DNA of 64,000 nt, from the NCBI RefSeq assembly GCF_002571385.2, contig NW_019218373.1, positions 1-64,000 of the forward strand. The letters are read 5' to 3'. The translations under genes were made by a program, and so were the position numbers. Source of the stretch: Stylophora pistillata (lineage: Eukaryota). Positions 37,650 through 40,600 of this stretch are shown piece after piece (the stretch's first letter is position 1; the number at the start of each line of letters is the position of its first letter). Below the pieces are notes generated by a model. The model had not been told where the DNA came from. It searched no databases and saw nothing but the letters and a program-made list of their open reading frames with translations.

Positions 37650-40600
37650 TTACGTACTAGAGTCCATATCCTGCACTCCTGTCATAGATTCTTCCTCGTC
37701 ATTCTCTGGTAACTCTTCCAAATTCTCCTCATTTTCCTTCAACAGCTCTACCTGGTAATCTGAGGTAGAGTACTCAAAGTAGCTGGCTATGTGATGCTGT
37801 AAGAAGAACAGGACACATTAATTTTTATCATGAGTAGGTACTTGTATGTAATGAGTAAGACAGTCTTGCAGTATCTGAACAAGGCTGTAATTTTAGATTC
37901 TACGAGTATACATCTAAGCTCTGAGTAACCAGTAATTTGAAAGTATTGAGTGAAAATAATCAAACAAAAAACAATCTCAATTTGGCATCCAGGAACCCTA
38001 TGTACCAGTAAGAGAGTTGTGTCAAAAAAAGTTTTCAGTCCCAGAAATTGTTTTTCTTCAAAGCAATAAACAATGTACATGGGATCCACATCCATGATAA
38101 AAAGATAAAAAAGGGCTGTAGGTAAGTCTGAAATCAAGCCTTCTGGGCCTTTCCCAAATGGGCAGGTTAGCAAGAAAGGTTGCCTGTCTGGAAGAGTAAT
38201 TTTCATGCCCTTGATGAATGGAGAGTTCCTCTAAATCTGGATTACCAGTACTCTTAAAATGGTGCACTTTGTTACAGATGGGCAGATATTGAGAGAGCAA
38301 GACTTTCAGCTGTTTGACTGTCAAGCAATTTAATGAAGTGATACATATGATACACGATCCTCGCAGTAGATAGCGCTATTTAAGCAATAGCGAAAATCAG
38401 ACCTGAAAAAAATCAGGCCTGTATGGGATTCGAACCACTGACCTCTGCGATACTAGTGCAGCGCTCTACCAATTGAGCTAACAAGCCAACTGGGAGCAGG
38501 CCGTTAAGTTGATTCGTAATAAACCCGTGAAAGTGATAAATCAGATACAATGAAATAATTATATGAAGTTCATATATTTTGAACTGNNNNNNNNNNNNNN
38601 NNNNNNNNNNNNNNNNNNNNNNNNNNNNNNNNNNTACAGGCCTGATTTTTTTCAGGTCTGATTTTCGCTATTGCTTAAATAGCGCTATCTACTGCGAGGA
38701 TCGTGTATCATATGTATCTAATACCGCAGTTCAAAATATATGAACTTCATATAATTATTTCATTGTATCTGATTTATCACTTTCACGGGTTTATTACGAA
38801 TCAACATAACGGCCAGCTCCCAGTTGGCTTGTTAGCTCAATTGGTAGAGCACTGCACTAGTATCACAGAGGTCAGTGGTTCGAATCCCATACAGGCCTGA
38901 TTTTTTTCAGGTCTGATTTTCGCTATTGCTTAAATAGCGCTATCTACTGCGAGGATCGTGTATCATAATTATGTATCTAATACCGCAGTTCAAAATATAT
39001 GAACTTCATATCTTTCATTGTATCTGATTAATGAAGTGAATAGAAATGATCAAATAGTGAGTAATTAATTACATAAAAACTACCTCTTTGAGTGGCTTGA
39101 TACACTGAACCATGTTTGCCAGCCTAAAGATTGTCCTTACTAAAAGATCCTTCACCTTAAAAAAAAAAAAAAAAAAGGGCAAACTTAAGAGAGCAAAGCT
39201 CCAAGTAAGAGATTAAAAGTCCTAAATCATAGAGGGTGAACCTCAGTGGCATAAAGACCATCACATCTATTGAAGAACAGTAAAGTCTGCATTTGAATCA
39301 GAGAGCACACTCAGTCACTCCTTATCCTGGCTTCTGTGCCATGAAGTGCCTGGATGTATTTTTACTCCACCTGGGTTGGATGCTTGTCCTTCGCAGCTTA
39401 ATACCCCTCATCATTATTTTTGTCAGGCTTCCCTCTACACCCTAACATCAGTATACATATTCCCCACACTGTTCTTTGTGCATTTCCTAAGGTGCTCATA
39501 AGGAGAACTTGTTTAACAATCAAGAGCTGCTCTAGTTGATGATCATTTCCTTTATTCTCGTGACCATAGTGTTGATTCAGGAGTGATATACTAAGGAGAA
39601 ATTAGATGCTGGTCACTCTCATGGGGTGAATTTTAAGGATTCCAAGGTGGAGAGGAGAAATGTGAGGGTAAAGTGCCTAGCCCTCATATTGAATGAAAAC
39701 ATCAATAATCCATTGTACCTTGGTTCTGCTCATGAATGCAGCCCTTGGATCTTTGATATCCCCATTCAATGTTCTCAGCTTGTTGGTCAACTTTTCCAGA
39801 GATGGCTTGATAAAGAATATAACCAGAAAATAATTATTGCCACTGACAGTAATAACTCAATCATATGTCAGGTCTCACACATTTACATTTAAGGTGGTAA
39901 GGGTACCATGGTACTCTTGTATACCCACTGGTGAAAATGTGTATTTGTGAAGTCTAAAAAATTAATCTGTTGTGTAACCTGGTGAGATTCATGCAAAAAA
40001 TTCAGTCAATGAAAACTTTTAATTCAAGGTGATTTCTTTGAAATGAAAACTGTTGAAATATTTTTTGGAAACTTTCCTGTTTTGAGAACTACAATTATTT
40101 GGTCCCCATGCTTGTTCAAGAGAATCCTATATACATATACAGTATCTTGAAAAAGTAAAACAATTAATGAAAATTTTCTTTAAGAGAGGTCTGAGGAAAT
40201 GTTTAGCCACTTTGAAACTTGGAAAAATTCCTTATCATTTGCATTTGCCTCTACTCACTGGAAAAGTACTTCAAAAGGCTTTGATAGCTTAATCATGAAT
40301 AATGATTTACCCTCTCTTTAGATGGCAAGTCCTCACTTCCAACAGCAAAGCTGATCAATGAGATAATTGTGTGCAACAAGAAATAGTCTGAGTCATCTGT
40401 AGGTTTAATCTGCGATACAAGTTTAATCAAACTGGCTACCTGTAAAAAATGGGCAGAAAAAAAGGAATTCCTTGACCTACTGAGAGCTTGTGTTTTTTAA
40501 AAAATGTTGCATTGCAGCAAATTTTAAGACTACCATTTCCCTTTCCAACCATCAAGGATGCCCTAATCTGCAAGTACAGGTTTTTAACTTTTTGATTTAA

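Follow-up and report, generated by a model that had tools for sequence, protein, structure and literature searches.

What kind of mobile element carries a tRNA-like sequence inside its repeat unit and lies as an inverted copy beside direct ones, and how is such an element copied? The question is raised by positions 38330 to 39039 of a 64,000-nucleotide stretch from the coral Stylophora pistillata (assembly GCF_002571385.2, contig NW_019218373.1, positions 1 to 64,000 of the forward strand), referred to here as the window. An initial annotation, made from the letters alone, had proposed a non-autonomous retroelement of the Penelope-like element (PLE) type at this locus, not a classical short interspersed element (SINE), in which a tRNA mimic might be processed by RNase P and RNase Z. 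We found that the locus is a single insertion of a 251-nt non-coding coral repeat. The evidence is good that this repeat is genuine and highly amplified, a non-autonomous element of PLE type in which a tRNA mimic sits where a ribozyme would, and its mechanism of insertion is likewise well supported; how its RNA template might be made is treated below as a more tentative matter.

Unit positions are counted from the first nucleotide of the tRNA mimic (+1), and two 3′-end sites are distinguished: site 1 at 140-155 and site 2 at 183-205. The locus and its neighbouring copy are built as follows.

38330..38341, no strand: left copy of the target-site duplication (TSD), 12 bp, an exact match with only two occurrences within the window.
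38340..38586, minus strand: inverted arm, 0.97 unit, tail-less, with its 3′ end at site 1 (unit position 148).
38415..38487, minus strand: mimic of the inverted arm, derived from tRNA-Thr (ARAGORN; Rfam RF00005, 49.4 bits).
38587..38634, no strand: assembly gap of 48 N over the head-to-head junction.
38635..39029, plus strand: direct arm, 1.54 units, tailed, with its 3′ end at site 2 (unit position ~195-200).
38826..38898, plus strand: tRNA mimic of the direct arm, in which the 30:40 pair has decayed (ARAGORN; Rfam, 42.6 bits).
38978..39029, plus strand: PLE-type "tail" of ~51 nt between the two 3′-end sites, present on one arm only.
39028..39039, no strand: right copy of the TSD, 12 bp, pairing exactly with 38330..38341.
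24458..24694, plus strand: separate single-arm copy ending at site 2, with its tRNA mimic at 24501-24573.

This anatomy agrees in large part with what had been read from the letters. The 12-bp TSD stands, and the arm lengths correspond to the one inverted and about 1.5 direct copies described before. The 73-nt cloverleaf is called by both ARAGORN and Rfam as tRNA-Thr(AGT)-like at all three positions (38415-38487 on the minus strand, 38826-38898 and 24501-24573 on the plus strand), and its imperfect T stem amounts to two mismatches. A unit of 255 bp is correct for the locus but not for the family (251 nt), the excess reflecting a private 4-nt insertion. The near-identical monomer placed at 24456-24694 is indeed a copy, with 91-96% identity and a damaged U-run hairpin, but its start is corrected to 24458.

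The inversion was checked against a misassembly around the gap and proved to be no gap artefact. The left unique flank is joined to the inverted arm, with zero differences, in contigs of all four public runs (two studies), and the direct arm is joined to the right flank in contigs of one of the four, which ties the inversion to unique sequence. The inner head-to-head junction (gap 38587-38634) is spanned by no contig of these four runs; gap-free head-to-head junctions are present at 24 other loci.

The family is large. A 22-nt tag gave 7,416 exact matches in the 398-Mb assembly and its reversed control gave 0. Unit length is 251 nt in 99 of 134 extracted units (subfamily A) and 247 nt in subfamily B, and arrays reach ~11 units. 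The two subfamilies differ in 43-48 columns, none of them within a block of ~90 nt formed by the leader end and the tRNA, and by this comparison the tRNA mimic is the conserved part of the unit. An older subfamily with anticodon GGT also occurs in this genome, and relatives were found at at least 120 loci in coral-type metagenome contigs. The unit is also present in contigs of three RNA runs (three studies), which carry no strand, end or level and may represent DNA; these contigs were not used as evidence.

Insertion ends were read in a positional sample of 49 loci (97 of the first 100 listed tag matches on two contigs, C1 and C2) holding 51 insertions, conditioned on the presence of the tag; seven insertions were dropped, five with an end at a gap and two complex. 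More than half (28/51) are head-to-head. Twenty-three of 25 head-to-head insertions pair an end at site 1 with an end at site 2, ~51 nt further downstream, the other two pair site 1 with another position, and none of the 25 is a same-site pair (site 1 with site 1, or site 2 with site 2). The window locus obeys this rule, with site 1 at its inverted arm and site 2 at its direct arm. A TSD of 12-16 bp flanks 22 of the 25 and is not a product of chance, because random flank pairs give at least 10 bp in only 1/254. Single arms end at site 1 in 15/19 and show a TSD in 2/16 testable cases. A best-score sample (35 insertions, seven dropped; site 1 with site 2 in 6/6) is biased towards the query and includes the window locus, and was not pooled with these counts. 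Arm ends join unique flank or TSD directly, with no poly(A) or simple-repeat tail of the long interspersed element (LINE) type.

At the 5′ side there is no such fixed point. None of 66 ends lies within 3 nt of the tRNA +1 and none at positions 36-40; the ends spread over the unit in a manner compatible with uniform (Kolmogorov-Smirnov p=0.34), as a circular or a long template predicts. Seven of the 66, from five insertions, fall at 72-78, where they start in or beside the U-run, not exactly behind the discriminator. With both samples pooled, divergence between the arms of one insertion was 1.4%, compared with 3.7% between insertions (33 of 39 insertions testable), and arms of one insertion shared 76 of 166 variants, versus 471 of 5507 between insertions. 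The low divergence within insertions indicates that both arms come from one source copy, and no head-to-head insertion is a mixed A/B pair. Several arm junctions lie on unit palindromes or contain short templated inserts. Separately, the junctions of L029, L099, L102 and L109 hold inserts of 20-41 nt between the arms, and those at L029, L099 and L109 resemble short re-copied pieces of the unit, which suggests repeated re-priming or end-joining repair. At L105:884 and L105:2414, 1.5 kb from each other, two insertions have the same left flank and are probably a duplicated haplotype in the assembly.

These end statistics already contradict the view that the repeat is an ordinary tRNA SINE mobilised by a LINE, or a satellite, with the inversion and the tandems as assembly artefacts. 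Its tRNA origin and the many arrays adjoining gaps in this short-contig assembly would suit such a view. SINE2 elements, the tRNA-derived SINEs, resemble the repeat in their tRNA-derived RNA polymerase III (Pol III) module (a predicted one here), non-autonomous nature and high copy number. In the repeat, however, the tRNA is internal and followed by U7, the tRNA does not mark the start of copies, a LINE-type tail is lacking and two 3′ sites are fixed. Together with the strict complementarity of site 1 and site 2, the 12-16-bp TSDs at gap-free loci and flank junctions reproduced in independent runs, this leaves the SINE or satellite explanation very improbable, and the earlier statement that the repeat is no classical SINE is upheld. 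A different tRNA-headed repeat with a non-palindromic loop, at L156:1108-1181 and L161:7691-7765, does resemble a conventional SINE.

The footprint instead matches that of PLEs. Two young autonomous PLE families in this genome, encoding reverse transcriptase (RT) and a GIY-YIG endonuclease, have paired 3′ ends, separated by ~62 nt in one and ~95 nt in the other, and among 11 listed arm pairs of these families five show one tailed arm together with an 11-16-bp TSD. Since the insertion footprint of the repeat is that of the autonomous PLEs, and not that of a SINE, the repeat is very likely mobilised by a PLE; its fixed 3′ ends, variable 5′ ends, partial tandems and inverted arm bear out the non-autonomous, PLE-type insertion first suggested. 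Published work describes PLE copies with a "tail at one end" (PMC8557442) and a PLE RT with two start sites that primes both strands (PMC11167929). Endonuclease-positive PLEs (Penelope/Poseidon, Neptune, Hydra, Naiad and Chlamys) and their non-autonomous forms, such as MRC1, share with the repeat partial tandems, 5′ truncation, an inverted 5′ arm, a tail at one end only and two internal 3′-end sites (PMC8557442, PMC11167929). The tail is ~51 nt in the repeat versus 30-40 in these elements, whereas TSD length resembles that of the autonomous PLEs of the same genome. Unlike PLEs, the repeat has no open reading frame, no hammerhead and no detectable sequence in common with the PLEs examined, and it carries a tRNA mimic inside its unit.

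The course of insertion can be outlined accordingly from the copies. In a head-to-head insertion, sites 1 and 2 receive one arm end each, inside a TSD of 12-16 bp, and both arms stem from one source copy. Very probably, a PLE dimer nicks both strands of the target and primes reverse transcription at the two internal sites, and the two cDNAs would then be joined head to head, sometimes at unit palindromes.

An autonomous partner sharing the sequence of the unit was sought among candidates from two scans, one for GIY-YIG (90 matches from 150 scored of 1,590 candidates; 50 fetched) and one for the RT domain (150 matches from 724 candidates; 40 fetched). Neither attachment to a PLE nor a shared end was found in the 50 of 90 GIY-YIG and 40 of 150 RT matches, with Naiads not queried. 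The initial annotation had named the lack of a partner sharing the unit as a result that would speak against it, and none appeared among the loci examined. What suffers is only the notion that a partner would share sequence with the unit, since in its insertion footprint the repeat agrees with autonomous PLEs of this genome. Non-autonomous Chlamys elements are described as generally sharing 3′ ends with their partner, whereas the coral repeat shares none with the PLEs examined. The nearest candidate partner, as a hint from tail and TSD length only, is a young, high-copy PLE family with RT, C-terminal GIY-YIG and a variant hammerhead core (L200:2197-5079 and L201:3767-5490); its tail measures ~62 nt, and a two-arm insertion of it is flanked by a TSD of 13 bp. 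The second young family (L131, L152 and ~25 related loci) has a canonical hammerhead, a tail of ~95 nt and TSDs of 11-12 bp; at L018 a tRNA unit is inserted inside the terminal repeat of a PLE of this type. The scans gave several hammerhead-bearing families with a C-terminal endonuclease. In the unit itself, no hammerhead core was detected on either strand, compared with 14/20 PLE control loci, in a search that could miss cores with two or more changes, and Rfam at E<=5 returned no ribozyme family, only tRNA.

Two other candidates were discarded: a suspected Naiad (L164) is a BEL/Pao-like insertion adjoining a PLE with C-terminal endonuclease, and the unit is not the pseudo-long terminal repeat of a coding element, as no common body lies beside it in 84 loci. 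The scans also brought up an older PLE-type RT family (L214, L220, L222, L223, L232, L240-L251 and L372-L383; ~90% identity, 149 exact matches to a 3′-end tag), whose reading frame stops where other families start the linker to GIY-YIG and which has a short 3′ untranslated region with one main end. In the loci read, neither side shows a detectable endonuclease, 4 of 12 copies run on into common sequence, and no link to the unit was seen in the 11 of 12 fetched loci examined.

What, then, is the tRNA mimic for? It derives from tRNA-Thr but is no working tRNA gene: it scores 48.9 bits against Rfam versus 64.2 bits for a host tRNA-Thr(AGT) gene, has diverged from those genes and carries mismatches in the T stem and at 31:39. 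In the five family consensuses, compensatory changes at 6:67, 7:66 and 28:42 preserve the acceptor and anticodon stems, 31:39 is A.C in every one, and the T stem is broken only in A and B, which are young and the most amplified. A covariation count that mixed host tRNA genes with element copies was set aside, as it reflects tRNA ancestry and not selection. Positions 32-35 are palindromic in 5/5 consensuses, as CCGG (in the older and other-coral families) or CTAG. The features that matter for folding lie in the window as follows.

38398..38421, minus strand: predicted U7-loop hairpin of the inverted arm, pairing with the acceptor 3′ strand.
38785..38825, plus strand: leader, the predicted pairing partner of the mimic's D and T arms (rod fold).
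38857..38860, plus strand: self-complementary anticodon-loop tetramer, positions 32-35, here CTAG.
38892..38915, plus strand: predicted U7-loop hairpin capturing the acceptor 3′ strand, with its T run at 38901-38907.

The hairpin around the U-run had been noted before and is present, but it had been sized too small: it comprises 9 bp and includes the acceptor 3′ strand. Across the family the U-run forms the loop of a 9-11-bp hairpin that takes up the acceptor 3′ strand and covaries with it in 5/5 families. In fold predictions, the acceptor stem has P=0.0 in read-through RNA of 4/4 unit variants and P=1.0 in a terminated 79-nt monomer; in a dimer running from +1 to the second U-run, its two strands come from unit n and unit n+1 (P 0.99-1.0). 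Since the U-run hairpin captures the acceptor 3′ strand, an acceptor stem is predicted only in RNAs that end in a U-run. The U7 run is likely a Pol III terminator, and release of a small (~79-nt) tRNA-like Pol III RNA is plausible.

Processing by RNase P and/or RNase Z, with multimers cut at the mimic in the role that hammerheads play elsewhere, or release of a small tRNA-like RNA in its place, had been the proposal of the initial annotation. It could draw on the covariation of the cloverleaf, the acceptor stem of the terminated monomer and the seven 5′ ends at 72-78. Those ends, however, start in or beside the U-run, none of the 66 lies at +1, the read-through RNA that would have to be cut has no predicted acceptor stem, and the most amplified families have a broken T stem. 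We regard this proposal as improbable, and its hammerhead-like cutting step was not supported.

The unit as a whole is predicted to fold as a rod (minimum free energy, MFE, z -5.9 for a family unit), the same in 5/5 consensuses, with the 6-nt palindrome at 31-36 exposed on a hairpin. One could imagine that this palindromic loop serves in RNA-RNA kissing and loads the two RT start sites onto a PLE dimer with no nuclease involved, which would also fit the one arm per site in 23/25 insertions. Against it, both arms derive from one source, no head-to-head pair mixes A with B, and autonomous PLEs without such a loop show the same two-arm pattern; kissing is thus an unlikely account of the loop.

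We propose instead a model in which the repeat is copied by a PLE and its tRNA mimic lets TSEN and RtcB make a circular template from a two-unit transcript; we rate it slightly short of even. In this model Pol III would initiate at the tRNA +1 and the first U7 run would stop most transcripts. Transcripts that read through one U-run and stop at the next are predicted to have their first acceptor 3′ strand locked in the U-loop hairpin. The 5′ half of unit n would therefore find its partner in the 3′ half of unit n+1, and a bulge-helix-bulge (BHB)-like junction with a C32-G pair would arise from the palindromic loop. TSEN would then excise exactly one unit and RtcB would circularise it, steps that may or may not take place and to which we give a little less than an even chance; rolling-circle reverse transcription would yield arrays with unanchored 5′ ends. 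In its broader form, in which ribozyme-free coral PLE parasites use the tandem tRNA mimic as a folding switch controlled by termination, with TSEN and RtcB making a circular intermediate, the idea is possible, though we would lean against it. The window copy lacks two consecutive tRNA mimics on one strand and would therefore be a dead end under the splicing model.

Predictions for natural dimers are in keeping with this model. Of eight dimers, L307 was excluded as a false anchor match; in the other seven, P is 0.51-1.00 for the hybrid acceptor stem, and the hybrid cloverleaf with BHB beats the in-register cloverleaf by 5.0-7.9 kcal/mol while lying 1.6-4.2 kcal/mol above the MFE. Replacing the loop with a non-palindromic one costs ~5 kcal/mol. 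The excised piece would equal one unit folding as a rod with its ends side by side. tRNA intronic circular RNAs (tricRNAs) are reported to depend on a C-G proximal pair, a bulge of 3 nt and a distance of 6 nt to the 5′ cut (PMC6614914); all three are predicted in the 4-bp register of the dimer, and a C32-purine proximal pair is possible by sequence in 5/5 families. Intron-containing pre-tRNAs and tricRNAs resemble the predicted dimer in mature-domain fold, C-G proximal pair and BHB-like motif, and their excised intron is circularised by RtcB, as proposed for the repeat (PMC6614914, PMC10485636). By contrast, the "intron" of the repeat would be a whole 251-nt mobile unit built from two tandem tRNA halves, with a register one step off in the lowest-energy fold and a broken T stem.

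A number of observations weigh against splicing. The model requires read-through of one U7 run, and the young families have a broken T stem. Without constraints, P(C32-G35′) lies between 0.01 and 0.93, with 0.09 in the dominant subfamily A; the lowest-energy fold has a helix of 6 bp (31-36) and bulges at 37-39 and is displaced by one step from the canonical register, a shift that follows from the A.C at 31:39 in all five families. Shuffling the leader (40 per subfamily) did not significantly change the hybrid preference (-6.9 vs -4.4 +/- 2.1 and -7.6 vs -5.6 +/- 2.1), and the leader was rejected as driver of the hybrid fold. Natural tRNA introns are described as mostly 15-30 nt (PMC10485636), and over-strong helices as impairing splicing (PMC6614914). 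The palindrome could be heritage of tRNA-Thr(AGT) or mutational: the host loop is itself CTAG, the change from CCGG to CTAG is a double CpG decay, and among the 127 metagenome copies listed the loop is CCGG in 79, CTGG in 14, CCAG in 10 and CTAG in 4, as expected from CpG decay. A non-palindromic CTGG+CAT loop is common to 9/90 old-type copies (counted by eye). The scans for PLEs attached to the unit or sharing an end with it, as well as for a partner sharing its sequence, came back empty among the loci examined, which adds to these points. Finally, the same two unit haplotypes succeed each other in an identical order in four arrays (L027, L028, L029 and L071), which better fits a linear multimeric master or an assembly artefact than one circle.

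That order also speaks for the strongest competitor, in which the same PLE mobilisation acts on a long, linear, unprocessed read-through of a genomic multimer and the mimic is only an internal Pol III promoter or a passenger. The D-loop and T-loop promoter boxes, which we take to be intact in the mimic despite its broken T stem, count in its favour. A PLE RT is reported to start internally and to favour unprocessed RNA in vitro (PMC11167929), and a tandem promoter logic is known for SM-alpha (PMC6765202). Yet a promoter alone needs neither compensated acceptor and anticodon stems nor a palindromic loop nor a covarying U-loop hairpin, a U7 run directly behind the promoter should halt Pol III before both RT start sites, and no flank recurs as an element body among 84 loci. 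A linear template is a serious possibility, and on balance a doubtful one.

Among known systems, animal non-LTR (long terminal repeat) retrozymes come close: they too have tandem non-coding units of 150-450 nt, in corals included, with long TSDs, a highly self-paired fold, a PLE link and RtcB as proposed ligase (PMC7229834, bioRxiv 10.64898/2026.07.22.740005). Retrozymes are, however, defined by a type I hammerhead, in place of which the repeat has a tRNA mimic and a U-run hairpin, and circles are only predicted here. The schistosome SINE-like elements SM-alpha and Sj-alpha are likewise tandem, with an internal Pol III promoter and two units needed to propagate, but they self-cleave by a hammerhead, and neither a PLE footprint nor a terminator behind the promoter is described in the accessible part of that source (PMC6765202). 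The repeat thus fails membership of the retrozymes, having no hammerhead, and of the SINEs, having no tRNA-anchored 5′ end and no LINE tail. Our literature search found no hammerhead-free, tRNA-bearing, PLE-mobilised tandem element and no TSEN processing of one, although Repbase, Dfam and subscription journals lay outside it and may hold the family under another label; the accessible part of PMC5786205 contains nothing on such an element.

Elsewhere in the window, a long palindromic element with 254-nt arms at 93% and nested inner arms lies at 52824-53467, and a duplicated unit of ~420-460 nt with internal inverted repeats at 10248-11127.

With the splicing step set aside, the family still documents PLE integration in nature through thousands of copies. 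Its strict rule of one arm per site and its stagger of 12-16 bp support the priming of both strands by a dimer from two internal sites, a mechanism demonstrated until now only in vitro and for one element. Thousands of "tRNA-Thr genes" called in coral genomes are, moreover, parts of mobile elements. If TSEN and RtcB do make the circle, the host's tRNA-splicing machinery would be doing for a retroelement the work of a processing ribozyme. Animal TSEN would then have a substrate other than tRNA, circular RNA could arise by a new route, and the question why PLE-type repeats carry processing motifs at all could be approached by direct tests.

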